Of a stretch of 44,773 bases of DNA, positions 1 to 27,719 are shown piece after piece. The notes beneath the pieces were generated by a model. The model was not told where the DNA came from. It saw nothing but the letters and a program-made list of their open reading frames with translations, and ran no database searches. Source of the DNA: a virus; IMG/VR virus record IMGVR_UViG_3300024992_000010; one strand, written 5' to 3'. Numbering within the stretch: position 1 is the first letter of the stretch; each line of letters opens with the position of its first letter. Position numbers and translations under genes: made by a program.

Positions 1-127
1 ATCACGGCAAGCCAGAAACAGGGAGGATTGCGGCGTTCAATCGTTACGCCGCGCGCTTTAGAAAGCGGGATGGAAACTCAATTTCGAGATAAATGGTTCG
101 TAGTGAGACCTGGTCGGGGAGCCATCC
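1..127. repeat. Terminal overlap: nt 1-127 are identical to nt 44647-44773 (circular closure of the contig, or a short terminal repeat)
   Basis: Read directly. Both copies run ATCACGGCAAGCCAGAAACAGGGAGG...GGTCGGGGAGCCATCC. The integrase ORF tail and intergenic motif A lie inside it. Confidence 0.95.
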
Positions 128-1663
128 TGCCTTACTACGAACCGTATCAAATCCGGTACGATTCACGAGCTTTTCAGCTCGATATTCGATCCTAAGTCCT
201 TTATCGTTCACGACAATCTGGTCGATGAACGAAGAAAAGAATAATCTTAATTTCTTTTCATCAGCCGTGGTCATTACGATATCGCGCAAAAGGGAAGCCA
301 TCTCCAGTACATCGTCTTCATCAATCGAGACCTCAGGCACCTCCTCTTCCTCGAGCGCCACCAGCTGCAGATCAAGGTCGTTCCGCATTTCCTTAAGTTC
401 GCGCAGGCGTTGTGTGAGATCTGCCATATTTGGCGCATTTTTTCCGTGTAGCTCGAGCACATTAAACAGATTTTTTAACCTTCCTTCAGTCTCACGCAAT
501 CGGTCTACCAGTTCCTTACGTCGGCGAGCACGATCTTTCACCCATTTGCCAGTCAGCTCGTGTATTTCATTGATCGTTTCAACCAATCTGTCCCGGGTGA
601 GTATCTTGTCCAGAATGACATTTATCAGCCATTGATCAAGATCGGGGGCGGGAATACGCCTGTTTTCACACCCAGCGCCTTTTTGGGCTGTCGAGCAGTT
701 GTAATAATAGTAACGCTTATTGCGTCCCGTCCCATTTTCGGAGCGCATGGTAAGGCCGCATTTCCCGCACTTTAATAGTCCCGTAAAAACGAAATTGCTG
801 TGAGGAGAACCGCCGCCTTCCCCTGGTAGACGCCCCGCAAAGATTTCTTGTACTCCCATAAAAACATGCTCCTCAATTATTGCCACGTGGCTTTGGGTGA
901 TGATCCATTCATCTCTGGATCTCGCACGATTGGTGTGGCTGTTAGTTTTATTAAAGATCACCTTCCCGGTATAAACTTCATTTTTCAGGGTGGCAGTGAC
1001 CACATTTTTATTCCACTTCGTACCGCGTTTCAGCCTCATCTGCTCATTCATGAGCATCGCGATAGCCTTGCATCCTAATCCCTTAATATAAAGCCCGAAT
1101 ATATCCCTGATAATCTGCGCTTCGGGCTCAACTATAATCAGCCGCTTCCGCTTGCCATCCGGTACCGCTGTGTAGCCAAAAGGTATCCGGCCGCCATTAA
1201 AAAACCCGTCCCGCGCATTCTTCACCATGCTGCGAAGCGTATCCGCGCTAACTTGCCGGCTGTAATGCTCGTCGAATATCTCGAGCATTGATTCCATCAT
1301 CCAGCCTGAATCCGTGCGGTTATCCAGATCCACGCTGACATACACTACCCGGGTGCCGCTTTTCTCCAGATCACGTTTATATAAGGCGGCATCGAGCTTA
1401 TTTCTGGCAAATCGTGATGTGCTCCAGCAGATGAAATATTCCACGCTGTAAGCCTTGCAATACCTTACGGCTTCACGGAAGGAAGGGCGCTCATCAGTTC
1501 GGCCGGATATGCCGGCATCGGTAAATACCCGAACCACGTCCGCGTCCAGCGCTGCCGCTTTTTTATACCCCTGCTCGATCTGGCTCTCTATCGGCAGCCC
1601 GTCATCCGCCTGCCGAGCAGTCGACACACGGGTATAAATAATTGCAGTCGGATTGCGCGGCAT
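44..1663 (-). CDS. Large serine recombinase (phage integrase type)
   Basis: 539 aa. N-terminal resolvase-type catalytic motif IIYTRVSTARQ. Central recombinase domain. Cys cluster CGKCG...YYYYNC (zinc ribbon). Long charged coiled-coil C-terminus. Confidence 0.9.
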   Translation of the reverse strand: MPRNPTAIIYTRVSTARQADDGLPIESQIEQGYKKAAALDADVVRVFTDAGISGRTDERPSFREAVRYCKAYSVEYFICWSTSRFARNKLDAALYKRDLEKSGTRVVYVSVDLDNRTDSGWMMESMLEIFDEHYSRQVSADTLRSMVKNARDGFFNGGRIPFGYTAVPDGKRKRLIIVEPEAQIIRDIFGLYIKGLGCKAIAMLMNEQMRLKRGTKWNKNVVTATLKNEVYTGKVIFNKTNSHTNRARSRDEWIITQSHVAIIEEHVFMGVQEIFAGRLPGEGGGSPHSNFVFTGLLKCGKCGLTMRSENGTGRNKRYYYYNCSTAQKGAGCENRRIPAPDLDQWLINVILDKILTRDRLVETINEIHELTGKWVKDRARRRKELVDRLRETEGRLKNLFNVLELHGKNAPNMADLTQRLRELKEMRNDLDLQLVALEEEEVPEVSIDEDDVLEMASLLRDIVMTTADEKKLRLFFSSFIDQIVVNDKGLRIEYRAEKLVNRTGFDTVRSKAGWLPDQVSLRTIYLEIEFPSRFLKRAA

Positions 1664-1673
1664 ATGGCTCAGT

Positions 1674-2027
1674 CTATCCCTTCCTCGCTATACGCAATAT
1701 GTTACGTATGCTGACTTTTTCACATAACTGCCGCTCCAATTTTTCCTTGATTTCGCGCGGCGAAAAATTCATCTCGATCAGCGTCTCGATATACCGATTC
1801 CGCTGATATCTCACATATGTTCTGAACCGCCTGATGGGTATTAGCAGGCGCCCGTCATCCGCAAGACTGATCTGGTCTGAATCCAGCATGCGCCACATGA
1901 TGATCAGGTTATCCACCCCTATTTTTTCGCCAATATCGATCCAGATACGTTGCAGGCCCATCGCCTGCAACTCGTCCAGCCGCGGGTCGCGTTTTTTTTC
2001 CGGGGCCGGTTCAAAGTTCAAAACCAT
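1674..2027 (-). CDS. Small HTH regulator, Mor-like (late-gene activator candidate); alternative upstream start at 2177
   Basis: C-terminal LLIPIRRF...RNRYIETLIEMNFSPREI...VSIRNILRIARKG resembles the Mu Mor C-terminal HTH region. The first 50 codons of the 167-aa ORF are low-complexity Gly/Arg-rich. The ATG at 2027 gives 117 aa, close to Mor at 129 aa. Confidence 0.4.
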   Translation of the reverse strand: MVLNFEPAPEKKRDPRLDELQAMGLQRIWIDIGEKIGVDNLIIMWRMLDSDQISLADDGRLLIPIRRFRTYVRYQRNRYIETLIEMNFSPREIKEKLERQLCEKVSIRNILRIARKG

Positions 2028-2401
2028 GCAGTTATCCTGGTACCCTCCCCCCCTGGCAGACTGATGACCCCGCTCCTGCCGACCCCCCACCCCACCGTCA
2101 TCCCGGCAGGCAGACGATACCGACACGCCAATTCCCAGTTCTGAACTTCGCTTTTCCTTATCCATTACCACTCTCAAACCCTCATGCCACCGTTGACCAA
2201 CTGCGCTTTATGGAGATAAGGCGCATTAACCTAGTTGCGGGAACCAAGATGATTTAGCCCGATATTTGTCAAAGTTACCGACACTCCGACAACCCCCAGC
2301 TTCGCCTACTCCCACCTTATATCTCTCTTCGAACATGGTCCCCCGTATATGGGTTGCGCGCACCAGAAACCCCGCGAGCGCCCCTCGATGCAGCCCTGCT
2401 T

Positions 2402-3403
2402 TTACCCCGGCTTGTTCAGCCTCTTCAAAAGGTCGCTGACTGGCGTTTTTATTTTTGCCAGGGGATTCGCACGATCGGCTTCCCGGGTCAGCTTTCTCAT
2501 GGCGAGATGATCATAGATGGCAGTGCTCTTGGCATCTTCATGTCCCATCAACCTCTGCCTGGCAATAAGGTCAACTCCTTCCTCTGCCAACTCGGTACCG
2601 AACAGGTGACGCATTGCGTGGGGATGGATCTGATCCTCCGAGATACCGCAGCGCTTGCCGTACTTCTTGATCATCTGGAGCACGGCCTTTCGGCTAAGCC
2701 GGCGCTGTTCTCCGTGGTAGTTATCGGGACTGATTCTGCGGTTCATCAGGCTTACGAAAAGCACCTGGTCTCCGTTTGGAAGGCGGCGATCGATCTGCTT
2801 CAGATCCGCATGATCTAGGTAAAGGCGGAGCAGCAGATCGGCTTCCGCGGGGATGGGCAGCTTGCGCTGCTTGTCCCCTTTCTCTACCACTTTGATCAGG
2901 AGGCGGGCTTTTCCGTCGATCTCGTCCTGGATGATATTGCTGTCGTTTAAACGTATCAGGCCTGTTACACGTAGCCCGCACCCTGCCAGCAATGCCAGAA
3001 TGGCGCCATCACGCACGCCCTCGAAGGTATTGAAATCAGGTTCCCACATCAGTTTGGCTGCGCTGGCCAGCGTCATGACTCGGGGGATTCTCCGGTTCTT
3101 CTTCGGGTACGGCAGATTTTCAGCAGGATTGCCACGGATGCGTTTTGAGGACGCCAGCCAGCTGTAAAACCCGCGAACCGCAGCCACATGAGGGCGCCTA
3201 CTTACGGGGTCACGCAACCCGATCTTATGCAGGTAGGGCCCCGTAAAGGCCAGCAGCTCATCCTGCGAGATTTCACGAAGGTCGGCGGTACCGAAATATT
3301 CAGCCATGCGCGTTAACGCCAGGCGGTAAACATGGATAGTCCGGTCGGACCTTCCGGCGTTGAGGCGCTTGAACTCGAGGAAGGATTCAATCAGCTCAAC
3401 CAT
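2402..3403 (-). CDS. Tyrosine recombinase/integrase, XerC/D-like
   Basis: 333 aa. N-terminal SAM-like core-binding region. Catalytic HPHAMRHLFGT...LMGHEDAKSTAIYDHL (H-x-x-R ... H ... Y). Confidence 0.88.
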   Translation of the reverse strand: MVELIESFLEFKRLNAGRSDRTIHVYRLALTRMAEYFGTADLREISQDELLAFTGPYLHKIGLRDPVSRRPHVAAVRGFYSWLASSKRIRGNPAENLPYPKKNRRIPRVMTLASAAKLMWEPDFNTFEGVRDGAILALLAGCGLRVTGLIRLNDSNIIQDEIDGKARLLIKVVEKGDKQRKLPIPAEADLLLRLYLDHADLKQIDRRLPNGDQVLFVSLMNRRISPDNYHGEQRRLSRKAVLQMIKKYGKRCGISEDQIHPHAMRHLFGTELAEEGVDLIARQRLMGHEDAKSTAIYDHLAMRKLTREADRANPLAKIKTPVSDLLKRLNKPG

Positions 3404-4268
3404 GCCAAGGTGCCAGCAATCCGTTAACAGGAAAGGCCAGCGCCTGACCGCAACGCGGGTTAATCCAAACCACTTCAGTACGACTTACGGTTCCTCGAGC
3501 AGCAGAAATCCGCGCCGAGGTTTCGTACCGATCCCAGGCCGCAAGCATCGAGTTATAGAGGGGGTTCGGATACCCGGATAACACAACAAAACCTTCCAGC
3601 TCGAGCAAAACTTCCAGCAGCTCAACATGGGCAGCATCGTCCATTTCGTGACGATAGGTTCGTCCCACTCCGGTTCCGCGCATCACCCGGGTTGAATGTA
3701 CATATGGTGGATCCACAAAATGGAGCGTTTCCGGTCCATCATGCTGTCTCAGTACCTTGATAGCTGATGCATTTTCTATGAGCACTCCCGATAAGCGCTT
3801 GCCGGCGCGTTCTATCGCTTCCGGATAGTAAGCCCATAGGTGCTGCGCCGTTCCATATTCGCGCCTCGTGTCGATTCGAAAACCTGTCCGGCCCTTTGTC
3901 GCTCCCGCGCTGCCGAAACCACACTGGGCCCGGACGGCCACGCGCCTGGCGCGTTCGACTGGGTCATCGGTTTCCTCATGAGCACGGATAAATTCATCAC
4001 GTGCGTAAGGAGTAAAGGCAACTTGCCTGATCAACTCTTCCCGCAAATGCTCGTTTTGCAGCACCCGGAAGAAATTAACCACGTCACCGTCCAGATCGTT
4101 ATATACCTCGGCATAGCAGCGCTCCTTTTGAAGCAGCACACCAGCTGCACCACCAAAAACCTCGGTATATATCCTATGTTCCGGAAAGAAACTCATGATC
4201 CAGTTCGCGAGGCGGAATTTGCCGCCGTGATATCTCAATGCGGGCTGAGTTACTTGTTCAGCGTTCAT
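3396..4268 (-). CDS. N6-adenine DNA methyltransferase (D12/Dam class), orphan
   Basis: LRYHGGKFRLANWI, EVFGGAAGV (AdoMet site) and the DPPY motif (HFVDPPYVHS). The start at 4268 overlaps the stop of the upstream ORF. The stop overlaps the recombinase start. Confidence 0.85.
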   Translation of the reverse strand: MNAEQVTQPALRYHGGKFRLANWIMSFFPEHRIYTEVFGGAAGVLLQKERCYAEVYNDLDGDVVNFFRVLQNEHLREELIRQVAFTPYARDEFIRAHEETDDPVERARRVAVRAQCGFGSAGATKGRTGFRIDTRREYGTAQHLWAYYPEAIERAGKRLSGVLIENASAIKVLRQHDGPETLHFVDPPYVHSTRVMRGTGVGRTYRHEMDDAAHVELLEVLLELEGFVVLSGYPNPLYNSMLAAWDRYETSARISAARGTVSRTEVVWINPRCGQALAFPVNGLLAPWHG

Positions 4269-4485
4269 GGCCGAGACAACCCTCTCCCGAATAATCGAAG
4301 TTGTCACACTTCCCACACGGAATAACCTCGTGCCCCTTGGATAGCTCATCCAGCAACATGGATTTCGCCTCTCTCGGCGTCAGCTCGCGCCCGTCGTCAT
4401 CCGTAAACACTCCCCTGAAATTTCTATCACTCCAGTTCATCAAGGCGCCCCTGACATCGAGGCACAGGTGATAACTCTTTCCCAT
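4258..4485 (-). CDS. Hypothetical small Cys-containing protein
   Basis: 75-aa ORF directly downstream of the origin region. C-terminal CGKCDNF...GCLGH. No recognised family. Confidence 0.5.
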   Translation of the reverse strand: MGKSYHLCLDVRGALMNWSDRNFRGVFTDDDGRELTPREAKSMLLDELSKGHEVIPCGKCDNFDYSGEGCLGHER

Positions 4486-4697
4486 TTCTTACCCTCAAAA
4501 GTGAAATCCAAAATGACCACACGCATTTCTTTCCGTGGATGCGTGGATAGCCCTCAAACAGATCATAAGGCATTGATTATTCGTAAAACATGATCCACGG
4601 GATTCCACTGAAAACCCGTGGATGGGGGTAAAAACCCGTGGATGCATTTTTAAGCAGCTTTTCTAACCCGTGGATTGCTGCTTTTCCTTCCACGGTA

Positions 4698-4745
4698 TCT
4701 TCTTTTCTTCTTTCTTCTTTTAAAAGAGATAGATAGATAGAGATA
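4698..4745. repeat. AT-rich pyrimidine tract plus (GATA)n micro-repeat; candidate DNA-unwinding element
   Basis: TCTTCTTTTCTTCTTTCTTCTTTTAAAAGAGATAGATAGATAGAGATA lies between the two iteron clusters. Confidence 0.6.
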
Positions 4746-4767
4746 CGAGCCGCAGGTCCGAAAAATG

Positions 4768-4851
4768 AACCCGTGGATAAATCGCCTGAACCCGTGTAAT
4801 AAAATAGACAACCCGTGGAAAAACAGCACAAACCCGCGAGGGACTTCCTCT
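4768..4851 (+). repeat. Four tandem 21-bp iteron units (two helical turns each)
   Basis: gAACCCGTGGAtaaatcgcct / gAACCCGTGtaataaaataga / cAACCCGTGGAaaaacagcac / aAACCCGCGagggacttcctc. Confidence 0.85.
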
Positions 4852-4986
4852 CCACGATCAGGCACTTATATAACTTTCTGATATAAATCCACGGATCAGC
4901 GCGCCTACGCCCCCTTACCTTTAAGAAAAAAGCGCGAAGCGCGACAAAAAGCGGCTGCATTTCTATTTGGGGGGTGCGGGGGGACA

Positions 4987-7704
4987 TCAGAAACCGGAAT
5001 CGACGTGTGGGGTTGCGTGCAAGCCGTATTGATCCAGCTTGGAAAGGCTGAGGGCTGAGAGGTGCGATACACGGGCTGAGCCGATGGTGCGCTCAACGGT
5101 GTCAGAAAGGATTACACCGGCGCTTTGCAATTGCTTCTTGAATACCCGATCCGATTTGACTGGCAAACCGTTCCATTTCTCGCGCAGTGCCGGTGTATGA
5201 GCAAGATGCTCCATGACATGGCTGGTACGCACCAGCAGACAATTCTCGCCGTCTACGGAATCCCATTTGTATGGATACTTGAATTCATGTCGGGCGATCT
5301 CCGACAGCACCGTTTCCATAATCCACACCCATGGCTGACGGTCGGAGCTGGTATCGGTAATGTGGGCGTTCATCTCCGCTATCAGATCGTCGCCAAAGTC
5401 ACCCTGCTTGATGTCGATCTCAGCAAATTCGCAGAGATAGCGCCAGGCGGTAAGCAGCGCCGCATAATTGCCAGCCATGCGCACGGCGCCATCATCCGCT
5501 CTGCTGGCGCGAGAATTACGCAGACAATGAGCCTTAATGCTCTCATAGACGGCCAGGACCTGGCTCCGGCTTAGGGCGGCAAGGAATTCAATCCACTGCT
5601 TCACCGGGAAGCGCGGCAGATCTTCGGGCATGAGCGGACCCTTCTTGCCGGTCAGTTGAGTACGCACGATCTTGCCAATTAGGCTGCGCACCGGGACATC
5701 CTCGCCGGCGAGTAAAACCGGTGCGGAAAGTAGAAATTCCGTCATTTCTGAAGAACCGAATGTGAGAGTGTATTGATAGCTTTCCTGGAGTATTCCCACC
5801 GCTATATTGATGATGTCCTCTTTTCTGGCCGATAACTCTTCCCATCCGACGGGGTGAGAGGTGTGCGAAATCGATGTCTTCAACCGGAACTGAGTTTGTA
5901 TCGATTGCCCGGACAGCATAGTGAAACCGATTGTCCGCTCGAGGCGCTTGATCAGCGTCGATTTTCCATGTCCCTTGTCCGCTTGCATCATTAGATGCGG
6001 CCAGAAGCCAAGCAATACTTTCAAATGCCCGCCAAGTCCCCACACAAGTGGCAGGGCGGCGGCATTGCGTTTGAAGGTGCTTTGGTATTGCTCAATGACC
6101 TTTCGTGCATCCTGGCGCGTCCCTGAGGGGAAGGTCAGATTGTGATAGGGGCATTGCTGCTGCGGATTCGTGAAATAGCAGTCCGGCCCCTCGTTTATTA
6201 CCAGCTTTCCGTCCCGATAGCATAGGCCAACGAAATTGGCTGCGTTGCGCGCTCCTATATGCGCGCCGCGTTCCAGGATATTGACCATGCGGAGGAAAGC
6301 GGATTGATTCCAGACCGGACCGATCTTTTTCCAGGTATCCACATTGTGCAGGCGCTCATCCTCTACCACCCGACGCACCAGGTGCACGCCATGCCGCGGG
6401 GTCTGCACGCTGATCGCGAAAAGGGTACGCGGCTGAATATCAGTTTCACCAGTCATGGTTGCCGTGGCTCCGGCGATCGTCACGCGCGACAGCCCAGCAA
6501 TCCGAAATCCGGCCAGATCGGTAAATGTCAGTTTTTCGTTGCCGTCCTCATCCTTTTTAACCTCTGAGATGAAACTGGTAAAATCCTCCCGGACGCGATA
6601 TCGCCAGTATTTGGTATCATCGTGGTAAGGCAGATACACCCGGCGCTTGCCGAAATCCTCTTCCACACTTCCAGGCTGGCCCTGAATGATCCAGGGCTCC
6701 AGCCTCCACAGTGCGCGCTTCAGCGCATCGATGCCGTGGATTTGAAGATAATCATTCAAGTCATTGATGGGCTTATCATCCGAATCTTTCCATTCCGACT
6801 GATCAACCATCATTGCCGCCACATCGAGGGCGGTGAGACGCTCATGAAGTTCCCAGGCGGCAGCACGGCCCGGACTGTGCCCCTTATTGTCCGGAGTGTC
6901 GTTATCCATCGCGATGACGACACGCTTGCCCTTCACCCAGGCGAGATCGATATTGGGTACGTTTCCGCAGCCCCGGATGGCAAACGCAGCGCTTTGCGGC
7001 ATATCCGCACACTCAACCGATAAGGCATTGATCGGCGATTCCACGAAATAGACCGTCTGGGCTTTAAGAAGCCGGCGGATATCGCTGGTCCAGCCGTAGC
7101 CTGATTTTTCACCCTGACACTGGGTTTTGATGTTGCCGTTGATCGCGGGGTCTAGATAGCGCAGATCCACCGCCATTACGTGCCCGGGATTCAAACTGCG
7201 TACGATGAACGCAGCTGCTGGACCACCGAAACCTGGCTCACCTTCCGCAACCTTGCTAGATTTCCAGTCATTGAAGCCGACGGCACCCTTCTTGATGGCA
7301 CGCTCCACCACTTCCCTGGTGATCCCGCGCCCAGTGAGATACTCAATCGCACGCTCCGGTTGTCCCAGGCAGCGATCGGCAATATATTCTGCACGAGTTT
7401 TTTCGCGCGGCTCGCCGCTGCGTTCCGGCTTGTCCAAGGGGAGTCCGAGATACTCATGCAGCATCACAATCGCTTCGCTCACCTCAACGCCACGGACAGC
7501 GCAAACGAGATCTATGCAGGTGCCACCGTCGCGCGTCGAGTGATCCTTATACTTGCGGCCGCCATCGTAAATCGATAGCGAGGGCGCCTTGTCCGCGTGA
7601 TGCGGGCTCTTGTAATTTCCCCGACCACCCGGCCTTTCCAGACCCAGCCACTCCGCCAGATCATGGAGATCAATGCGCTGCTTGAGCTCGTCAATCGTCG
7701 CCAT
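4987..7704 (-). CDS. Bifunctional DNA primase (Toprim) / P-loop helicase replication protein
   Basis: 905 aa. N-terminal primase-like region (KSPHHADKAPSLSIY). Toprim signature VYFVESPINALS...VIAMDNDTPD. Walker A QADKGHGKSTL in the central domain. The overall architecture resembles P4 alpha. Confidence 0.85.
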   Translation of the reverse strand: MATIDELKQRIDLHDLAEWLGLERPGGRGNYKSPHHADKAPSLSIYDGGRKYKDHSTRDGGTCIDLVCAVRGVEVSEAIVMLHEYLGLPLDKPERSGEPREKTRAEYIADRCLGQPERAIEYLTGRGITREVVERAIKKGAVGFNDWKSSKVAEGEPGFGGPAAAFIVRSLNPGHVMAVDLRYLDPAINGNIKTQCQGEKSGYGWTSDIRRLLKAQTVYFVESPINALSVECADMPQSAAFAIRGCGNVPNIDLAWVKGKRVVIAMDNDTPDNKGHSPGRAAAWELHERLTALDVAAMMVDQSEWKDSDDKPINDLNDYLQIHGIDALKRALWRLEPWIIQGQPGSVEEDFGKRRVYLPYHDDTKYWRYRVREDFTSFISEVKKDEDGNEKLTFTDLAGFRIAGLSRVTIAGATATMTGETDIQPRTLFAISVQTPRHGVHLVRRVVEDERLHNVDTWKKIGPVWNQSAFLRMVNILERGAHIGARNAANFVGLCYRDGKLVINEGPDCYFTNPQQQCPYHNLTFPSGTRQDARKVIEQYQSTFKRNAAALPLVWGLGGHLKVLLGFWPHLMMQADKGHGKSTLIKRLERTIGFTMLSGQSIQTQFRLKTSISHTSHPVGWEELSARKEDIINIAVGILQESYQYTLTFGSSEMTEFLLSAPVLLAGEDVPVRSLIGKIVRTQLTGKKGPLMPEDLPRFPVKQWIEFLAALSRSQVLAVYESIKAHCLRNSRASRADDGAVRMAGNYAALLTAWRYLCEFAEIDIKQGDFGDDLIAEMNAHITDTSSDRQPWVWIMETVLSEIARHEFKYPYKWDSVDGENCLLVRTSHVMEHLAHTPALREKWNGLPVKSDRVFKKQLQSAGVILSDTVERTIGSARVSHLSALSLSKLDQYGLHATPHVDSGF

Positions 7705-7713
7705 ATGAAACTC

Positions 7714-8049
7714 TCATGCTGGTACGTCATCTCCGAATTTGGAGGCGACAAAGCAACGCATGGCTGCTTCAAGAGCGGTTTTGCCAACGTATACGTAGTT
7801 TCTGTGATTCGCGTAAATGTGCCCCACCCAATTCTCAGCAGGTTCAAGCATTATTCTTTCACGTTCGATAATCGGGCCACCCTGTAACCAATCCTCGGAC
7901 GGGTTCCAGCGCGAGACGTGACAGCGATAGCGGTTCTCGCTTTTTGGGTCATACCATATGGGGATAGAGCCCCATAGACGTTGTTCCCAACCGAGCGCCT
8001 TGGCCACCAAATGATTGAGCCGATGCCCTGTGAGTTCAGCAGTTTTCAT
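7714..8049 (-). CDS. DUF2591-like phage protein
   Basis: 111 aa. The N-terminal LTGHRLNHLVAKALGWE pattern is typical of DUF2591 phage proteins. ATGA overlap with the upstream ORF. Confidence 0.5.
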   Translation of the reverse strand: MKTAELTGHRLNHLVAKALGWEQRLWGSIPIWYDPKSENRYRCHVSRWNPSEDWLQGGPIIERERIMLEPAENWVGHIYANHRNYVYVGKTALEAAMRCFVASKFGDDVPA

Positions 8050-8357
8050 TGATTCATCATCTTTACGTGATACCTGAGCTCAACCCGGGTAGCGGCTTCT
8101 CTCAGTCTACTGGCGCTGCAAAGCTTCATTGCTTCCAGGCCGATAGCCATCATCGTTTCCAACTCGGCACGTTCTTCGTCGCCCCAGGCGATCAATTCAG
8201 CAATGCAGGCTTTCAGGCGTTCGTCTTTCAGCTTGGCTGCTACGGTTGCGAGGTATTCCAGTTCAGATCGTGGCAAATTGCCACGCCCTTGCAGGAGCTC
8301 CTTCGCCCGGGCCGTGCAGTGATTGATCACGGCTTGTTGATATGCTGGGGCGCTCAT
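8046..8357 (-). CDS. Hypothetical early protein
   Basis: 103-aa ORF with ATGA overlaps on both sides. Helical composition. Confidence 0.55.
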   Translation of the reverse strand: MSAPAYQQAVINHCTARAKELLQGRGNLPRSELEYLATVAAKLKDERLKACIAELIAWGDEERAELETMMAIGLEAMKLCSASRLREAATRVELRYHVKMMNQ

Positions 8358-8875
8358 TCGATGGCTTCCTCCGCCGTTTTCCGTAATTTCTCCGGTCGGA
8401 TGTAGAGCTTGGTTCCGACAGGAAAGTTACCTATCCAACCTATAAAATTGACCGCTACCCCGCACCCAAACGCCACTACCTCGGCAGCTGGCTGATCTTC
8501 CTGCGCTTTCAGCTTTTCAGGTGCATTATGCTCAAGCCACATCATTCCAAGCTTTACCATGAGCTCGGCCTCATCTGAGTTGGTTGGCATTTTTACTACC
8601 CGCTCCGGCTTTGCTGCATAAAGCGGCTCATTCGAGTCATGGATGAGCATTCCTCCCGGATCGCTTGTCACGTCTCGCGGATCACGAGGTGAGCCGTCAG
8701 AACGGTGAGTAACTAAACTCTCAATCGCATGATTGCCGGAGCGCATCTGGTCTATTTCATCCTTGAGCGCATCAACCTGCGCTTCCAAACTTGCGCGATA
8801 CGCGAAATCGCCTTTCGGGTCAGTGTCCATATTGTCGAGTCCTGTGTATGCCGATGTGTCGCGGTATGCTGTCAT
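8354..8875 (-). CDS. Hypothetical early protein
   Basis: The ATG at 8875 forms an ATGA overlap with the stop of the DUF4326 gene. 173 aa. Confidence 0.5.
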   Translation of the reverse strand: MTAYRDTSAYTGLDNMDTDPKGDFAYRASLEAQVDALKDEIDQMRSGNHAIESLVTHRSDGSPRDPRDVTSDPGGMLIHDSNEPLYAAKPERVVKMPTNSDEAELMVKLGMMWLEHNAPEKLKAQEDQPAAEVVAFGCGVAVNFIGWIGNFPVGTKLYIRPEKLRKTAEEAIE

Positions 8876-9129
8876 CCAAACCTCTCTGCCAGTTCTGCCA
8901 ACACATCCCCATGGCAAGGTTCTGGTGAGCACCAGCAGGCCAGGGTTTTCCCTTTAAGCTCATGCAGGGACTCAAGAAGCGCAACCTGCGTCACAACCCA
9001 CTCCCTGTATTTCTCGATCACTTCTTCACGAGTGCCGTCACGGCCCATCACGAACGGATTACCCCATTTGCTCGGCCTGCCGATATAAATGTCGTATGGG
9101 GATTTCTTGCAATGGACGACCTTTGTCAT
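8872..9129 (-). CDS. DUF4326 family protein
   Basis: KSPYDIYIGRPSKWGNPF...REEVIEKYREWV...LKGKTLACWCSPEPCHGDVL is the DUF4326 pattern. The start at 9129 forms an ATGA overlap. Confidence 0.7.
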   Translation of the reverse strand: MTKVVHCKKSPYDIYIGRPSKWGNPFVMGRDGTREEVIEKYREWVVTQVALLESLHELKGKTLACWCSPEPCHGDVLAELAERFG

Positions 9130-9374
9130 TTGGTCGGCCTCAACAGTCGAGCAATATGCCCCGCATAAACCGCAACCGCTTTCCAATATGCGGCCATTGG
9201 TGCCTTGTGGGATCGCCATGATTTCTCGGCGCGGGCTTGAGCATCCTGCCGGATGTCAAGCAGCAAAGAGCGAAGCGCGCTGCGGGCATCCGGCGAGAGA
9301 TCGGCAAGACGCCCCGCAGCTGGAAGAGATAAAAGTGGATTACGAACCTGTGCCGAAGTGCTACGTTCGCTCAT
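9126..9374 (-). CDS. Hypothetical early protein
   Basis: 82-aa ORF in the tightly overlapped operon. Confidence 0.5.
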   Translation of the reverse strand: MSERSTSAQVRNPLLSLPAAGRLADLSPDARSALRSLLLDIRQDAQARAEKSWRSHKAPMAAYWKAVAVYAGHIARLLRPTK

Positions 9375-9649
9375 GCATCCTCCTTGCCCACTCCAGATAT
9401 GCGCAGTGATCGGATCCGTTCATGCACCCACATGCTGGATATGATTCCAAATGGGCCGCCAGCCAAAAACGCTGCGATCTGCATACCGCCGGCATCCGGC
9501 GCAAGTTTGAACAGCACCAGGTTGCTGATCCCTATGCCGAAGCTCGTGAGGAACGCCGCAAGGTAACGGCCATGGTTGACGTTGAGGCTTTGCAGTCCCA
9601 GAAAAAACACCAGCGCGAATGTACTGGCGAATAGGGCAAGCTCATTCAT
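9371..9649 (-). CDS. Small membrane protein with three predicted TM helices (holin or exclusion candidate)
   Basis: 92 aa. Hydrophobic segments LALFASTFALVFFLGLQSL, YLAAFLTSFGIGISNLVLF and MQIAAFLAGGPFGIISSMWV. Confidence 0.55.
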   Translation of the reverse strand: MNELALFASTFALVFFLGLQSLNVNHGRYLAAFLTSFGIGISNLVLFKLAPDAGGMQIAAFLAGGPFGIISSMWVHERIRSLRISGVGKEDA

Positions 9650-9658
9650 GTTGAAAAA

Positions 9659-9976
9659 TCATGACGACCTGCCCGGCTCTACCCCGATGGCACGCAATGG
9701 GCGGTCGTAGATAGGCTCATCGGAATAGACGCATTGCAGCTCCCAGCGATCTTTCACGTTTGGCTTGAGTCTCGTGGCGATCAGTTTTTCACCGGCCTGC
9801 GAATCTGCACACATGGTAGACAGGCGGTTAATTTCTATTTTCTGTTCGCGATTCTGATTGCTGAGCCAGGAGATGAAGCCAATGACAGAAGCGACACCGA
9901 TGACGACTATCACTCCCATCACTCCGATAACCTGTCCCGGGTGATTCGGATCCGGCGGCTGATACCACGCAGTCAT
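9659..9976 (-). CDS. Membrane-anchored small protein
   Basis: The ATG at 9976 forms an ATGA overlap with the upstream stop. 105 aa with one TM (VIGVMGVIVVIGVASVIGFISWL). Confidence 0.5.
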   Translation of the reverse strand: MTAWYQPPDPNHPGQVIGVMGVIVVIGVASVIGFISWLSNQNREQKIEINRLSTMCADSQAGEKLIATRLKPNVKDRWELQCVYSDEPIYDRPLRAIGVEPGRSS

Positions 9977-10401
9977 AGCGGCCTCCGGATTGTCCATTCC
10001 ACCTTTACGTCGTGAATTTCTACGGACAGGATTCGATCGATGTATTCCGTGGTGACGATGCGCTGGGTTTCGATACCGCCCAGTTCGTCGCATTTTGCGA
10101 CGCCCTTGATAACGATGCGAGGAGCACGCCAGGCCAAATTGACCGACAGTACGACAAAACCACGATGCATCAGAATCAGGGCGACTCGCCGCATTGCCGT
10201 TATGGCATCCATGATCCCTTGATTTTCGATGCCTCCAATGCTTGAGGGGCCAGCGTGGGTGATCAACGCGTCATGATTCGCTTGGCCATGCTCCATGCCT
10301 TCAACCAGGTGTAACAAAGTCCTGGATCTCGCCACAGGTAATATGCGAGGAATAATCTGCTCACTTCTAGCCTCCATTTTTGTTATCCTCCGAATCGTCA
10401 A
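9973..10401 (-). CDS. Hypothetical early protein
   Basis: 142-aa ORF (an internal ATG at 10377 is also possible). No recognised motif. Confidence 0.45.
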   Translation of the reverse strand: MTIRRITKMEARSEQIIPRILPVARSRTLLHLVEGMEHGQANHDALITHAGPSSIGGIENQGIMDAITAMRRVALILMHRGFVVLSVNLAWRAPRIVIKGVAKCDELGGIETQRIVTTEYIDRILSVEIHDVKVEWTIRRPL

Positions 10402-10663
10402 TGCTCTCGCCTGCCAGCGCCATGTACGCCGCGCCGTTCAGGTAATCGTCGATGATGGGACGCCCATTCTGCGATCTGGAAAGTTTCAGAACGACCATGA
10501 ATACCCAGCCGTCGCGCTGGCTAAGAGAGTGCCCGGTAAGGGCATTGAATGTGGTCACCGCGCGAGCCATGCTGCGTTCTCCGTTCTCGCGGTCAAGCTG
10601 GTCTGCCCGCGCGGCAATTTCATCGGCGGCCGAAATGAGAATGTCTACCGCGGCATGTTTCAT
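10367..10663 (-). CDS. DUF6378-like phage protein
   Basis: 98 aa. ...RENGERSMARAVTTFNALTGHSLSQRDGWVFMVVLKLSR...DDYLNGAAYMAL is the pattern I associate with DUF6378. Confidence 0.45.
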   Translation of the reverse strand: MKHAAVDILISAADEIAARADQLDRENGERSMARAVTTFNALTGHSLSQRDGWVFMVVLKLSRSQNGRPIIDDYLNGAAYMALAGESIDDSEDNKNGG

Positions 10664-11337
10664 GCTGCCACCCTCCCCTCGTAAGCCTTACGGAGTGCCG
10701 CTCCACGCACGCGGCGGCGGGACGGGAAAATACGTTCGATTTCAGCACCTACGTCCTTCCGGCTCATGGTCAGGTATTCCATGCACGAGGCGATGCTGGT
10801 ATGGCCCAGCAGGTTTTTGAGGCGCACGAGTGCAGCCTGTGGGCTTCCCTCGCTGTTCTCGAGGAAGGTTACGGCGAACGTGTGCCGCAACCAGTGCGGC
10901 GATATCGCGGGGTCGATACCGGCCTCGATAGCAATCTCTTTCATGCGTTGCTGGTATGCGCGTTCCGACATGGCTTCGCCATTGCGCGACAGGACAAGTG
11001 GGTAAAGTTCCGGCAACTTGGAGATCGCCATACCTGCCATCTCCGCACATATACCCAGCAGGTCGCGCAGCGCATCCTGCACTTCCCCCTTCGCATGCAC
11101 CGAGAGATCACACGCCTTCTTTTTGCGGTGCTCTTTCGGGACAAATAGATATCCCGAGTTCAGCGCCGCCTGCGCATCGCCGACGGTCAACATGCTGAAC
11201 TCCTTTAGCCGCATGCCTGTCGTCAATAATAGACGCACCCAGGCATAATCCCGTCGTCCTAAGAGATCGCCCCTGCGCCGCATTGCACGGCGCAATTTCG
11301 ATTCTTCCTCATTGGTCAAACATCTGTTTCGTTTCAT
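10660..11337 (-). CDS. Small tyrosine recombinase (catalytic domain only)
   Basis: 225 aa. TGMRLKE (Arg), HWLRHTFAVTF (H-x-x-R), LLGHTSIASCMEYL (His...Tyr). No separate N-terminal core-binding or arm-binding domain. AGGAGGG Shine-Dalgarno 7 nt upstream. Confidence 0.8.
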   Translation of the reverse strand: MKRNRCLTNEEESKLRRAMRRRGDLLGRRDYAWVRLLLTTGMRLKEFSMLTVGDAQAALNSGYLFVPKEHRKKKACDLSVHAKGEVQDALRDLLGICAEMAGMAISKLPELYPLVLSRNGEAMSERAYQQRMKEIAIEAGIDPAISPHWLRHTFAVTFLENSEGSPQAALVRLKNLLGHTSIASCMEYLTMSRKDVGAEIERIFPSRRRVRGAALRKAYEGRVAA

Positions 11338-11406
11338 CGCTCGCCCTCCTGTTTAGTCCATGCTGCCTTTGTGCCCCACCCGCGCCGGCAGCTTGCGCGG
11401 ATAGTT

Positions 11407-11634
11407 TTAACCTTCCTGCGCAGCCTCAAGTTCTCCCATCCAAATCGCATTGCCTTCATCCATACCGGAACAAAAAGCATCGAATGCTGCAGTGCCTATC
11501 CGATGGACATGAACGATTGCTGCATCGTTGATACGAAGCTCCAGCAACGCTCTCACCCCAGCCTTATATTCCTGACTGCGTGCAACTCGGCCAGCGTGAA
11601 ATGCTTCGTTCATCAGTTCATCTACAGTTTTCAC
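11407..11634 (-). CDS. Hypothetical early protein
   Basis: 75-aa ORF with consistent strand and codon pattern. Confidence 0.45.
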   Translation of the reverse strand: MKTVDELMNEAFHAGRVARSQEYKAGVRALLELRINDAAIVHVHRIGTAAFDAFCSGMDEGNAIWMGELEAAQEG

Positions 11635-11815
11635 TTGCTATCCCCTTTAAGGCCGCTTGATGTTTTGGATTTGGTAAAAATTCGCGCCTCCAGTTCGCTG
11701 CGGAAAATGAGGCAAAACATGCGGTGGAAGCTGACCTCCTGCCCAGGCGAAAGATTGTCATCGATGGTCAAAAGGCCGCGCTTGGCAAGGCAGGCCGGAG
11801 CAGGATTCGTCCTCA

Positions 11816-12280
11816 CTAGACCATCTCCTTCATCCGTGCCAGGCCTTCGAGAATCGAAGCGATCCATTCGTATGATGCGCGCTCGATCTGCAGATACTCT
11901 TCTGCATCGATGCGATCATCGGTCGCGAGCGCGCAATGTATGGCGCGGTAAAAATCCCCGCCTTCCAGTCCAATCTTGGTGATATGCGCGATGAGCGCGG
12001 TAGTGGTGAGGTTGGAGAGGTCGGGCAATGAATAACACACCTCTCCCACGGTTGCGGCAAAGGCATGGAGAACGCGTTTATCGCCGCTCATGATGGTGAG
12101 AACCACTGCGTCGGCTAGGGTCGGTATGTGATGGCTTCTCTCGGTCGCGTTGGCCTTGTTGTACAACGTGCCCGTAGCGACAACCATCTTCCCCGCCAGC
12201 TCTTCTACTCCTCCCGGATATTCATGAACAACATCATGAAACGCTTGCTGGACGTTCTTCTGAATCGGTGCTCGCCCCAT
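11816..12280 (-). CDS. CII-like phage regulatory protein (CP76-type)
   Basis: 154 aa. Sits directly after the cro-like gene. ...GTLYNKANATERSHHIPTLADAVVLTIMSGDKRVLHAFA resembles the phage CII/CP76 family. GGAGGAGGG Shine-Dalgarno. Confidence 0.5.
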   Translation of the reverse strand: MGRAPIQKNVQQAFHDVVHEYPGGVEELAGKMVVATGTLYNKANATERSHHIPTLADAVVLTIMSGDKRVLHAFAATVGEVCYSLPDLSNLTTTALIAHITKIGLEGGDFYRAIHCALATDDRIDAEEYLQIERASYEWIASILEGLARMKEMV

Positions 12281-15670: not shown

Positions 15671-18600
15671 CTATGAGCCCTGGATGCGCGCATCGATCAC
15701 CGCGTCCGCCAGGGCATTGCTTGCGTTGTAAATCTTGATGCGCGGACCCACGCTGTTATCTTTGTCGATCAGCACCCAGCTCCATCCCGCGCCCACGTTC
15801 TGCAGCGCGCTCACCGCCGCCTGGCGGATCACGCTATACGATTTGGTGATGGGAAGCCGAACATCGCCCACACCGAGGCGATACGCTCCGGTGAGCGTGG
15901 CGGTGTTCAGATCGTTGATATCTTCCGTGATGGGTTCTCCGGAGAGCTTGATATCCATCTGTGTCAGGCGCGGGGAACTCCCGGTGAGCGTGGCGCGAAT
16001 CTTGATGTAGCGGGCGGTAACGAGCGGCCCGACCGTAGCCCAGGCGCTGTAACTCACGTTATCGTCGCTATGAGCCTCTTCTATCGTCTGCGTGCCATCC
16101 CCGACTGCAGAAACCAGCGGAGTGAATGGCAGCGACACACCCAGGTCGATGACTGGATGCTCATAGGTGATGCTGCCTGCCGGGGTCAGCACCCATGCCG
16201 TATAGGCATCCCAGCTCGTGAGATCGGCCCAGGTAGTGGTATCCATCGCCGACAAGGCGCCGCTTTCCGGTTCGACCAGGCAGTTCGTTTTGGTGCCCGG
16301 CCATCCGAGCATATGCGGATAGACGCTGTAGAGTATCCCCGCCATGCGCGGATCCGGCAGGTCAGCCGTGATAAATACGGCATTCTCAGACTCGTTGCCC
16401 GAATCGTCGAATCCCTTGACCGCAAAGGTGTAGGTGCCTGCGGAGAGCAGGTTCGTTTCATAGGGGGACGCGGTCAGCAGGCCATTATGGAGGGGAGACA
16501 GGTCTGCCCAGTAATCGGTCCATCCGGTTCCCAGTCGGTACCGGATGGCATATCCTGCGAAATCAGGCGGGGATATGCCCGGCATTGCCATGTCGAACTG
16601 GCGCGTCCCGTCCGGCTGCGCCGAGATCAGGAAGGTCTGCACATCCGGGGGTGGCGCCGCGAACGGGTCTCCAACCCACTCGGACCATTGCCCCACGCCA
16701 AGGCCCACCCCCGCCACGCGCACCCGCACCGGCCCGCGCTGCGCCGGGATTGACGCATTGGTGGCTGATGCGATTCCCGCCCGCTGCCAGCTGCTGCCAT
16801 CGTTGTACGACCATTCGACATAGTAATGATCGGCTCCCGCCGCAGGCACCCAGGAGATAAGCAGCAACGGTGTGCCGGCGGTGCCTCCCAGCGTGACATT
16901 CACGCCGCTAACATGCGGACGCGTGATTTGCGCCGGCAGATTCCATGCGGTGGAAGGCGGCGGGGCTGTGCCGGTGTCGGCTGTATGGACGGCGGGATCC
17001 TCTACGACGAACGAGAGTTCGACGCGTTCCATCGAGCGGGGGCGAGGCGAGATGACCCGCACTTGCTGATAGAAGCTGGTAGCGGGACCGAATACGTAGG
17101 ATGTGCGCTCCCGGTCGCGGCCGGTATCAGGAGTGAAATCCAGCGCCGTGCTCAGCACGGCATGGTGATCATCCACGCCTGCCGTGGCGCTCCACGGACT
17201 GGACAGGCTGCCGTCACGCTTGCGGAACCCGAAATAATGCGTGCCGGTCGCCCATGCCAGCGGCTCGGAAAGCGTCAGGGTTTTCGTCGCGGCATCATAG
17301 GCCACCACATCACCCGATTGTCCCCAGCCTGGGCGATCACGCTGCAGCGCCACCAGGTCTCCAGGCAAGGGGATAAATCCCTCCATCTCGGTCGTCAGCG
17401 ATGGCAGGATGCGCCGGTAGCGGTTGCTGGCCGCCTCGTACATCCCCTCGCGCCAGGCCTGGTTATGGCTGGTTACGCCAAAGAGGGTCAGCTTTGCCGG
17501 CTGGTCAGCGCTGTATCCGGGCAACTGGCATAGCACCTCTTTTTGCGTCCAGGTGGTCTCATCGAAATACTCGACGATCACGGAATCAGCGGTTTCATCC
17601 CCGCTCATGACGTAGTCAGTTTTGAACGAGCCGCGCACGGTGTTGCGCATGTTGAATAGCGCCACCGGCATGGTGGCCGGCTCATCCCGAAAGAAGCGGA
17701 TCACCATGCCGTGCTGGAACCATTTCGCCCTGCCGGCGCGTGCCGTTGCGGTCAATGCCTCGCCGAATGTCATCTGCGAATCGAATATGGCATCGAACCT
17801 GTCCCCGCGCGCAGTCCAGGCGGCATCCTTCGCCAGCAGCCATGCGAGGTCGTAGCGGCTGTCCGGCAAACGCGTCTTGCAGATATACGCCAATGCCCAG
17901 GCGATCGAGCGCGTATGCGTAGGTTGGCTCCAGGTTGTCCCGTTCCAGACGGGCAAACGGCGCTTGGCGATGAGATTGATCTTGCGCGAGGATTCCTGCG
18001 AAAGGCTGTTGGTCGCGCGCATGCGCACCGCCAGCATGGTCACATCCGGATAAGCCTGTGAAGAAGGAATATATCCGCGCAAACCAGTCCACATCACGTC
18101 ATGCCCTACGCGTGTGGATTCATCCTTGGTATCTTTCCGGGTCAGGCGCGCTTCGTAGCGACCGGGGCCCACGCTGAATTTATAGGTGCGGCGTATCGGC
18201 GTGGCGGTCGCATCCGTGATCTGGATCGGCTGGACGGTCGCGACATAGCTGCGTGGCGGATGCGGGTCCGAACCAAAAGGCATCCAGCGCCAATTTTCCT
18301 GGTACACGATTCCACCCACGAAGATCGTGCCTATGAGCTCACCGGAATAATGGTCCGCGGGATTGGTGCTTCCGTATCCGGTCTGCGTCCATGGAGCGGT
18401 TGTGCCGAATATAAAAGTCGAGGCGTAACCTCTGGACCAGTAGCCGGAATAATAGTAGGTGTTGGTCTCCTCAATCGCCTGCCAGTTGCCGATCGGCGCG
18501 CCGATATCATCCACGGTGCGTATCTCGAGGGAGACCAGCACGCTCATTTGCGTCAGACCGCCATTGTCCGTGGCGTAGTACAGGCCACGCGGACAAACCA

Positions 18601-24818: not shown

Positions 24819-24844
24819 GCGAGTCTCCTATGGTTGCGCCGCGA

Positions 24845-24994
24845 TCATTGCTGCGGCTGTTCTTCCGTTCCTTCCTCCACCTGTTCTTCGGTCTCGTCCT
24901 TCGTCCATTCGCGCCGCGTGAGCGTTCCGTCTGGGTTACGAACATATGAGCCACCATTTTGCGGCTCATCCTGGCTGGGTATTTCGTTCTCCAT
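24845..24994 (-). CDS. Unlisted 49-aa acidic ORF (MENEIPSQDEPQNGGSYVRNPDGTLTRREWTKDETEEQVEEGTEEQPQQ)
   Basis: Translated by hand. GGAGAG lies 7 nt upstream of the ATG. It fills the gap between the spanin and major tail genes. Confidence 0.45.
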   Translation of the reverse strand: MENEIPSQDEPQNGGSYVRNPDGTLTRREWTKDETEEQVEEGTEEQPQQ

Positions 24995-24996
24995 GA

Positions 24997-25566: not shown

Positions 25567-25568
25567 GA

Positions 25569-25985
25569 TCAGCCTTCCTTCAGCGTCATATCAAACGCCA
25601 CCCAGCCATAGGGGTGATCAAGCTGCTGGCTCTGGCGCCAGCTTGTCAGCGTGAGAGAACCTAGTTCCGGAGGCAAATTTCGGGTAAACGCCTTTATTTC
25701 GTCGATCATGACGCCCTCCGCGTCTTCAGTCTCGGAAGGGAGCGCTGTTTCCGCAACGGCGAGCTGCGCCACTACCAATACCCGATGCTCTCCATCCCGC
25801 GTCATGCCCCCAAGGTAGTGGCTGTAATTTCCCTCGCTGGCTGATAGAACCGTATAGATACCGCGCTTGAGCTCCAGCAGAGGACGTGCGGCAAAATCCT
25901 TCAGGTCGCGGGTGACAATACGGGACGGATACATCCCGGCCAGCGTGGATTTGATGGCATTCATGCGGATGGAGAGTGCGCTCAC
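25569..25985 (-). CDS. Neck/tail-terminator candidate (assigned by position)
   Basis: 138 aa. GTGA overlap with the gp10-like gene. No motif recognised. Confidence 0.35.
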   Translation of the reverse strand: MSALSIRMNAIKSTLAGMYPSRIVTRDLKDFAARPLLELKRGIYTVLSASEGNYSHYLGGMTRDGEHRVLVVAQLAVAETALPSETEDAEGVMIDEIKAFTRNLPPELGSLTLTSWRQSQQLDHPYGWVAFDMTLKEG

Positions 25986-26461: not shown

Positions 26462-26486
26462 GGCGCGCCAATTTACGCAGATCAGC

Positions 26487-26513: not shown

Positions 26514-26520
26514 GGATGAA

Positions 26521-27414: not shown

Positions 27415-27426
27415 GCTTTCTAAACT

Positions 27427-27708: not shown

Positions 27709-27719
27709 GCGATCCTCTC

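Follow-up and report, generated by a model that had tools for sequence, protein, structure and literature searches.

A phage large serine recombinase that very probably integrates at tRNA-Asn through an attachment site in its own gene, beside a separate Xer-like tyrosine recombinase

The presence of two integrase-type genes in one temperate phage genome raises a question: which of the enzymes inserts the phage into its host, and what is the other one for? We addressed this question in IMG/VR virus record IMGVR_UViG_3300024992_000010, a stretch of 44,773 nucleotides (nt) that is called the window here. On its minus strand, the genes for a large serine recombinase (LSR; 539 amino acids (aa), positions 44–1663) and for a Xer-like tyrosine recombinase (TyrRec; 333 aa, 2402–3403) lie 738 nt apart. 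A first-pass annotation of the window, made from its letters alone, had pointed to this pair, to a third, small tyrosine recombinase at 10660–11337, and to an open reading frame (ORF) and a non-coding stretch as the only sequence between the two larger genes. These observations held up: the catalytic residues of both enzymes are kept in the window and in homologues, the third enzyme is a 225-aa protein with invariant catalytic residues, and one ORF of 163 aa and about 235 nt of non-coding DNA occupy the interval. The same annotation had allowed that one of the genes might prove inactive; on alignment, the catalytic residues are present. As argued below, the LSR very probably integrates the phage at tRNA-Asn by means of an attP site within its own gene, and the TyrRec appears to be a separate enzyme and not the integrase.

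The large serine recombinase and its attachment site

Pfam and PHROG domain searches identify the product of 44–1663 as an LSR, present here in its excised, phage form with the tail ...FLKRAA. Three Pfam domains were found: Resolvase (PF00239, E = 5e-25), Recombinase (PF07508, 6e-19), and Zn_ribbon_recom (PF13408, 7e-16). The nucleophile is Ser14, which lies in the motif YTRVSTARQ; S14, R12, and Y10 are invariant in 19–20 homologues, as are the zinc-ribbon cysteines C299, C302, C323, and C332. The closest solved relatives are SPbeta SprA, A118, and TP901-1, and the profile covers SprA and A118 over residues 148–493. A protein search returned hundreds of betaproteobacterial homologues in two length classes. 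Members of the first (~538–540 aa) are found on ~40–45-kb contigs and have the tail WLP[DE]...LRT...LP.RF..AA; members of the second (~523–529 aa) are chromosomal and have the C-terminus WLPD.GSN.GP.D.

The search of host genomes for prophage ends, which the first-pass annotation had proposed, defined attL and attR and placed the junction at the 3′ end of the LSR gene. The corresponding attP is a 49-base-pair (bp) sequence at 95–143 (minus strand) within the last 100 nt of that gene; part of it is duplicated at 44741–44773. On checking the sequence, we found inverted outer arms, GGTTCGTAGT (134–143) and ACTACGAACC (95–104), flanking a common core, TGGCTCCCCGACCAGG (109–124, minus strand). This core, located by alignment to the attR of Nitrosovibrio, matches the 3′ end of tRNA-Asn including the CCA, being an antisense copy of the last 13–16 nt of tRNA-Asn(GTT). 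The Nitrosovibrio sp. Nv6 prophage reads primase ... tyrosine recombinase, gap, a 165-aa ORF, and LSR before the host genes begin, and the LSR ORF terminates inside an antisense tRNA-Asn(GTT) gene. Nucleotide identity between Nv6 and the window continues through TGGCTCCCCGACCAGG and ends there. The first-pass annotation had suggested two fragments for recombination assays, and neither proved to be attP: 2028–2401 is never split in the relatives, and 44630–44689 lies just beside the site at 95–143 inside the LSR ORF.

Among 104 loci gathered by genome and viral-contig scans, the LSR 3′ end overlaps a tRNA in at least 42 (Asn in 38, Glu in 2, His in 1, and Arg in 1), and the tRNA-type LSR tail is also found on many more, trimmed proviruses. 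Both ends of a Propionivibrio prophage, 48.3 kb apart, carry (T)TGGCTCCCCGACC, giving a core of 13–14 nt. In Nv6 and in Nitrosospira Nsp1, attL reads GATCAGG and attR reads GACCAGG; this single T/C mismatch would confine the crossover to TGGCTCCCCGA. The length of the core depends on the target: 13–16 nt for Asn, 9 nt for Glu (Eikenella), and 7 nt for His (a Burkholderiales metagenome-assembled genome, MAG). The host-identity block always begins at the TGG that complements CCA, and the 7 nt common to the Asn, Glu, and His cores (TGG plus 4 nt) include the center of symmetry. In the window, the crossover would thus fall within TGGCTCC (118–124), the first 7 nt of the core; the LSR presumably catalyzes it, and the exact crossover dinucleotide is likewise presumed. 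By way of reference, cores at tRNA genes are typically 25–76 bp for tyrosine integrases, whereas those of serine integrases are 5–8 bp (PMC8092301).

Sites for the Asn, Glu, and His targets were reconstructed, both attP and attB, from attL/attR pairs. All of the reconstructed attP sites are 49 bp long and have 10-nt inverted arms (GGTTCRYAGY and RCTRCGAACY) at 15–24 bp from the center, without core-type inverted repeats beside a 6–8-bp overlap. The motif CGAACC lies exactly 5 bp nearer the core in attB than in attP: 3 vs. 8 for Asn, 10 vs. 15 for Glu, and 12 vs. 17 for His. In attB, in the half on the tRNA side, this arm motif is the antisense T-loop. The LI (A118) integrase has its ZD motif at positions 16–24 in attP and 5 bp inward in attB, a rule proposed for other serine integrases too (PMC3783163); the arms of the window’s attP lie as far out as the ZD motifs do in the attP of the LI integrase. 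The 49-bp geometry, the 5-bp arm shift, the short cores, and the lack of core-type repeats by the overlap together argue strongly that the LSR is the phage integrase.

The following course of events is proposed. The attP would recombine with the 3′ end of tRNA-Asn, and the tRNA would be rebuilt in the process. Integration would leave the LSR gene at the right end of the prophage, running antisense into the tRNA. The outer arms (GGTTCG.../...CGAACC) copy the universal T-loop motif, which comes 5 bp closer to the center in attB, and this 5-bp offset would be the means by which a serine integrase distinguishes attP from attB. The location of the site, its geometry, the swap of the LSR tail, and the exchange of integrase cassettes (the latter two are treated below) are shown by comparison among the relatives.

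Several points weigh against this assignment. The contigs from public sequencing runs show the excised form and no host junctions, and the case is thus one of sequence comparison; these runs were available as Logan contigs (none of RNA is listed), in which starts, ends, and rare host junctions are not visible. The 3′ termini of tRNA genes are classic targets of tyrosine integrases, and the TyrRec gene is always close to attP in this phage family. The left half of attB, downstream of the tRNA, has no recognizable arm motif. Because the arms double as conserved codons (left, V-R/H-S; right, L-R-T), their conservation may be partly at the level of the protein. With its odd length of 49, the attP pseudo-palindrome does not by symmetry alone reveal the central dinucleotide. 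Excision by serine integrases needs a recombination directionality factor, and none was identified. The role offered below for the tyrosine recombinases is one that we infer.

Exchange of the recombinase tail

An attachment site within the coding sequence has a consequence for the enzyme: integration swaps a conserved LSR tail of ~22 residues (...LRT...LP.RF..KAA) for ~9 tRNA-antisense codons (GSNLGPAD). The integrated LSR ends in ...GSNLGPAD, its stop codon is supplied by the antisense anticodon loop, and W-L-P in the tail is encoded by the acceptor end of the tRNA read antisense. The displaced tail codons would come to rest ~44–48 kb away at attL, and excision would restore the tail. In the window, the codons expected to move to attL are those at 44–111 (minus strand), which encode ...VSLRTIYLEIEFPSRFLKRAA; they were delimited from the Propionivibrio attL and from tallies of LSR tails. 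That attL bears the displaced tail ORF, with codons ...LLRTASITLFMPKRFCLAA.

The phage-form tail has a characteristic end. Among 52 cleanly classified tails, 43 end in -AA and 5 in -VA, and most of the loosely classified ones likewise end in -AA. An attractive hypothesis is that the -AA tail may act as a degron, making the stability of the enzyme depend on its state of integration.

A broader proposal can be held only tentatively, at somewhat less than even chances. It envisages a widespread family of tRNA-targeting serine integrases whose zinc ribbons would read a copy of the T-loop, such that a change of tRNA would need only a new acceptor-stem core. Integration would switch the stability or activity of the enzyme by removing an ssrA-like -AA tail, and the two tyrosine recombinases would have an undescribed function in the life cycle.

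The Xer-like tyrosine recombinase as a separate unit

If the LSR integrates the phage, how is the TyrRec to be placed? Its gene (2402–3403, minus strand) encodes the Pfam domains Phage_integrase (4e-25) and SAM_1, and the catalytic residues are intact: R145, K175, H262, R265, and Y297 are invariant in 13 homologues, and H288 is nearly so (Q in locus L042). The best solved match of a profile search against the PDB is XerD (1a0p, E = 2e-48). Measured against the NCBIfam equivalogs, the enzyme scores 175 bits for XerD (cut-off 329.6) and 159 bits for XerC (cut-off 335), below both. It is phage-borne and limited to this phage lineage; no plasmid homologue is closer than 30% identity.

The first-pass annotation had entertained two alternative integration systems. 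Among the genome loci that include the block (~21/46), TyrRec, gap, helix-turn-helix (HTH) gene, and LSR stay together unbroken, with the junction at the LSR 3′ end in every case, which speaks against a second system. In prophages of the window’s type, the junction lies 2.3 kb from the TyrRec gene. In Eikenella glucosivorans and in the Burkholderiales MAG, the LSR is reversed and the TyrRec-HTH unit is at the opposite end of the prophage, which places that unit just across attP in the circle.

A serine recombinase is missing from proviruses G008–G010 (one of them, of 44 kb, has a completeness rating of 100%); the TyrRec, the HTH gene, and the small tyrosine recombinase are kept. In G010, a different tyrosine integrase takes the LSR slot at the provirus end, and further Phage_integrase matches lie at the record ends of G008 and G009. 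As the TyrRec is joined to the HTH gene in prophages and is kept beside a tyrosine integrase, it is evidently not the integrase. On comparison of these relatives, the integrase appears to be a swappable cassette and the two tyrosine recombinases “housekeeping” genes of the lineage; the 333-aa enzyme, the 235-nt regulatory gap, and the 163-aa HTH gene appear to form a separate unit that is kept whatever the integrase.

These findings bear on two more of the ideas in the first-pass annotation. Its general notion of one integrase plus something else holds; the details differ. It had also imagined that integration junctions might reveal a nested or chimeric element, and this is half true: the integrase slot is swappable (an LSR here, a tyrosine integrase in G010).

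Cases with an LSR and apparently no TyrRec were considered as well. Three of them (L025, L034, L040) were rejected as proof of an LSR acting alone, because whole-genome searches show TyrRec-HTH at the other end of the prophage. Among the cases of this appearance, only E. longinqua has no close TyrRec.

The small tyrosine recombinase (225 aa, 10660–11337, minus strand) belongs to the early operon of the lineage and consists of a catalytic domain only. Its residues R43, K72, H148, R151, H179, and Y188 are invariant in 11 homologues, and the enzyme is also present in Microcystis phage vB_MaeS-yong1 (yong1), in G008–G010, and in many viral contigs. Like the TyrRec, it appears from its distribution not to be the integrase and to be retained whatever the integrase. 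A predicted complex of the 333-aa and 225-aa recombinases received a score of 0.18 (mark, 0.32). Separately, we observed that the C-terminus of the 225-aa enzyme (10660–10680) is also -AA (..EGRVAA), and that some homologues end in ..RAAA or ..RVGA.

The non-coding gap and the HTH protein

The gap between the TyrRec gene and the 163-aa ORF (2166–2401, minus strand) is a conserved non-coding regulatory region, as judged from an alignment of 24 loci. It contains blocks of the types GTTKC-N8-GCAAC and ACGGGCTAA (at about 2351–2359 and 2254–2262) that are conserved down to yong1 and are promoter- or operator-like. It also contains an imperfect inverted repeat (2199–2228), the left arm of which is degenerate in the window; in relatives, the arms are 10 bp. 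The 3′ arm motif of the repeat, AAGCGMAGTT, recurs at 2143–2153, and these are its only two occurrences in the window.

Does this repeat mark a recombination site? A 34-bp repeat with a 13-8-13-like geometry brings lox- or dif-like sites to mind, and it was examined as such. The pattern of mismatches speaks otherwise: across 53 unique homologous repeats, the seven inner pairs contain 30 mismatches of the G.U type vs. 1 of the A.C type. This spectrum, with its C-G / U.G / U-A series, indicates an RNA stem in the sense transcript, and the candidate recombination site was rejected in favor of a probable RNA hairpin. For this reason, we take the gap to be regulatory and to form the 5′ leader of the HTH-LSR operon, and do not regard it as a site of recombination.

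Two further observations concern this leader. In relatives, the stem-loop ahead of the HTH gene has a conserved loop (..CTG.CA.AAA) and shows covariation of the G.U type. The second copy of the 3′ arm (2143–2153) overlaps codons 5–9 (EKRSS) of the 163-aa ORF, a position over the start of the ORF that suggests alternative pairing and translational control.

The ORF itself (1674–2165, minus strand; the best start is at 2165) encodes a predicted DNA-binding protein, according to its alignment and an AlphaFold model. The model has a disordered N-terminal part and a helical domain of ~100 aa with an HTH at its end (pLDDT >85 for residues 61–163). The first-pass annotation had called the product Mor-like. 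In favor of that label, the whole folded domain is matched only by Mu Mor (1rr7; Z = 5.3, 77 residues, root-mean-square deviation 5.2) and by Mu C (9l0x; Z = 5.2, 87 residues aligned, root-mean-square deviation 6.1), Z values that chance matches between helical proteins can reach; against it, the protein has no match in Pfam, the Mor family (PF08765) is missed by all 12 members at E <= 5, and a Foldseek search of the PDB gave no match at E <= 0.001. The label is thus weakly supported. In LSR-less relatives, the HTH gene lies directly upstream of the packaging operon. We conjecture that the protein is a Mor/C-type late activator, on account of its position before the late genes and of a 27-nt element, described below, that precedes three late transcription units.

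A G-rich DNA motif, GGGGTGGGGGGTCGGCA (~2075–2095, codons GVGGRQ), is conserved at the nucleotide level and lies in the predicted disordered part of the 163-aa protein. Metagenome contigs L071 and L090 end in or just after this motif. Together with L104, they had been considered as possible junctions, their ends lying 300–400 nt past the TyrRec gene. This was rejected: L071 and L090 stop in or after the conserved motif, and L104 stops shortly before the G-rich region, just past the second copy of the arm motif.

Candidate roles of the tyrosine recombinases

What, then, might the two tyrosine recombinases do? The first-pass annotation had named multimer resolution and a DNA switch as possible functions for the tyrosine enzyme. 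Both are candidates, with the qualification that no target site for the 333-aa recombinase was found and that the palindrome in the gap resembles an RNA hairpin. Its related suggestion of an extrachromosomal, iteron-replicating prophage finds no support in the relatives, which are integrated in chromosomes.

Our best guess, a doubtful one in absolute terms, is that the tyrosine enzymes serve in the monomerization or cyclization of replicating phage DNA. In this case, the Xer-like enzyme would be a resolvase of the Cre/Xer/TnpI type that monomerizes or cyclizes replicating or injected phage DNA at a site within or close to the adjoining gap, independently of the integrase. In more than 100 loci the catalytic residues are kept; the enzyme accompanies integrases of either type, and the unit lies mostly just upstream of the packaging genes. 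The conserved gap is always behind the TyrRec gene, and 46 of 116 loci have, 135–220 nt past the stop codon, a 34-bp inverted repeat arranged as 13-8-13, with an additional direct copy of one arm ~55 nt further on. We take this combination to recall loxP and the Tn4430 IRS with its accessory repeats. Opposing these points are the signature of a sense-strand RNA stem in the inner pairs of the repeat, the degeneration of its left arm in the window’s own clade, the absence of a second site from the genome, and the lack of close homologues on plasmids.

An inversion or deletion switch run by one or both tyrosine recombinases (in the manner of FimB/E, Rci, or Cre), or a back-up integration at secondary sites, is distinctly less likely. 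The 225-aa enzyme is of the size of FimB/FimE and aligns end to end, weakly, with tyrosine-type DNA invertase models (E = 6e-7); a variant lacking the LSR persists in several metagenomes; and a perfect 18-bp inverted repeat lies within a tail-fiber-like gene. The arms of this repeat (17153–17170 and 17699–17716) are 528 nt apart, both in frame, inside a gene for a 1345-aa J-like tail protein. On inversion, the segment 17153–17716 would have stop codons and no protein-like sequence; it is thus not a coding switch, and the candidate was rejected. Moreover, the contigs over 1–4000 contain no orientation variants and no host junctions, no repeated candidate site was found in the window, and the integrated relatives are all at the LSR site.

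It is very improbable that the 333-aa enzyme is the true tRNA-Asn integrase and that the LSR has another role, such as excision only, inversion, or resolution: tyrosine integrases do usually target tRNA 3′ ends (PMC8092301), and the TyrRec gene is no more than 2.4 kb from attP in the circular form in every arrangement seen, but the attP has arms at 15–24 bp from its center, a serine-integrase-specific 5-bp shift, and no inverted core-type sites by a 6–8-bp overlap, the cores go down to 7 nt, the target tRNA (Asn, His, Glu, or Arg) varies with the LSR clade and the site is always within the LSR ORF, LSR-less relatives have an extra tyrosine integrase at the provirus end yet retain the TyrRec, and the LSR of E. 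longinqua is fused to tRNA-Glu with no close TyrRec (best match 33%).

Genome organization, host, and variants

Positions 1–127 of the window are an exact duplicate of 44647–44773, a 127-nt assembly overlap, so the genome is a circle of 44,646 bp. This circle, excised or derived from virions, belongs to a temperate siphophage of betaproteobacteria. The closest relatives are prophages in Nitrosospira and Nitrosovibrio, and the host is probably a member of the Nitrosomonadaceae. A megablast search of 1–12000 against isolated phages gave no match.

Nearly all long ORFs are on the minus strand. In the order of transcription, an early region of the Cro/CII type, where a CI-like HTH gene lies on the plus strand, is followed by the 225-aa tyrosine recombinase, a P4-type primase (60% identity to the primases of P2-like phages from Burkholderia and Ralstonia), a D12 methyltransferase, the 333-aa tyrosine recombinase, the 235-nt gap, the 163-aa ORF, and the 539-aa LSR. 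Beyond the circular junction are packaging, Mu-like head, and siphovirus tail genes; as the contig is circular, the packaging and late genes follow immediately downstream of the recombinase genes. The phage has two genes for D12-class adenine methyltransferases (3396–4349 and 26521–27285), the second of which is surrounded by head and tail genes. The Nitrosovibrio prophage has a gene of the PAPS-reductase family in place of the first.

A 27-nt element (minus strand, GCCGCAATCCTCCCTGTTTCTGGCTTG) is repeated at 8–34 (= 44654–44680), 26486–26512, and 36326–36352, just upstream of three late transcription units. Two of the copies are identical and one is 85% so, and the first begins right behind the LSR stop codon. 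These repeats are candidate late promoters or activator sites.

The sequence of the window was found in bioreactor and wastewater metagenomes. Contigs of one run have an intact attP and extend across the circular junction. From another run, X16, comes a 43,324-nt contig (42x depth) in which position 66 is joined to 1419, with a microhomology of 1 nt at the joint. The deletion of 67–1418 drops LSR residues ~82–532 and the attP core and shifts the frame. Runs X14–X20 contain 0.56–0.72 of the sampled sequence words, where ~0.66 would be expected for the deletion variant. Presumably, this variant is an integrase-less, non-integrating lineage.

Implications

Serine integrases are prized enzymes for genome engineering, and their choice of site is hard to reprogram. 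The present family keeps one site geometry over at least four tRNA targets, with one arm on the invariant T-loop, and thus offers a comparative series for studying change of specificity. An attP inside the integrase gene couples the form of the enzyme to the state of integration, a device documented so far for tyrosine enzymes and repressors. The phage group is common in betaproteobacteria, including ammonia oxidizers of wastewater reactors, where induction can affect nitrification. Why two extra recombinases are kept in more than 100 relatives, whatever the integrase, could be asked in lysogens available in culture: Nitrosospira sp. Nsp1, Paucimonas lemoignei DSM 7445, Pseudogulbenkiania ferrooxidans 2002, and Andreprevotia chitinilytica DSM 18519.

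Comparison with known systems

Only few phages are known to carry several integrases. Among the isolated phages in our collection, the same trio of genes (TyrRec, HTH gene, and LSR) is found only in yong1 (MT855965.1), with identities of 41%, 37%, and 38% across its members; yong1 has the small recombinase as well. In yong1 the trio lies between lysis genes and repressor-side genes, whereas in the window it comes before the packaging genes. The region 24304–27754 of yong1 (L001) has the trio, the primase, a CII-like gene, and the small recombinase in common with the betaproteobacterial phages. Its LSR tail starts with WRPE, like that of a relative (L042) fused to tRNA-Arg(CCT), and its true host and attB deserve a check.

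Serine and tyrosine recombinases likewise occur together in the temperate Psychrobacillus phage Perkons, in some Gordonia phages, in Geobacillus E3, and in Tsamsa. In Perkons, the serine enzyme integrates, and the roles of the tyrosine enzymes were left open (PMC13245101). The lineage of the window is unrelated to phages of this type and infects other hosts, and more than 100 related genomes conserve its extra tyrosine recombinases independently of the integrase.

With XerC/XerD, XerS, XerH, XerA, and Cre/loxP, the 333-aa enzyme shares a SAM-like N-terminal domain, an RKHRH-Y catalytic domain, and an adjoining conserved non-coding region. It differs from them in that it falls far below the XerC/XerD cut-offs and is phage-borne, and in that a dif-type (11-6-11) or lox-type site is not confirmed, the only palindrome close by being 13-8-13-like.

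The LSR has the domain order of A118/LI, SPbeta SprA, TP901-1, phiC31, and Bxb1 (resolvase, recombinase, zinc ribbon), and its sites resemble those of phage large serine integrases in the ~50-bp attP, the distal arms, the 5-bp inward shift in attB, and the short core. Characterized serine integrases cut in ORFs or intergenic DNA (PMC8092301). The LSR of the window instead targets the 3′ tip of a tRNA, which is rebuilt; its arm motif mimics the universal T-loop; and its attP is in its own coding sequence, such that the tail depends on the state of integration. In a search of the literature that was incomplete in coverage, we found no published description of serine integrases that act at tRNA genes or that span their own attP. 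New here are the T-loop-mimicking arms, the 5-bp shift at three tRNA targets, the statistics of the -AA tail, and the exchange of cassettes with a tyrosine integrase.

The nearest parallels to a self-rewriting integrase come from the tyrosine recombinases. The IntP/IntX of Mx8 and the integrase of Sulfolobus SSV1 have attP within their own genes, and integration rewrites or splits the gene. As in those systems, the excised and integrated forms of the window’s enzyme differ; here the exchange concerns only ~22 C-terminal residues, in a serine recombinase. In mycobacteriophages with integration-dependent immunity, repressors and integrases that end in -AA are interpreted as carrying ssrA-like degradation tags, and integration removes the tag from the repressor (PMC8092301). 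The window shares with phages of this BPs/Brujita type an attP inside a phage gene and the removal of a C-terminal -AA tail on integration. There, the split gene encodes the repressor and the integrase is a tyrosine recombinase; here, the split gene encodes the serine integrase itself.

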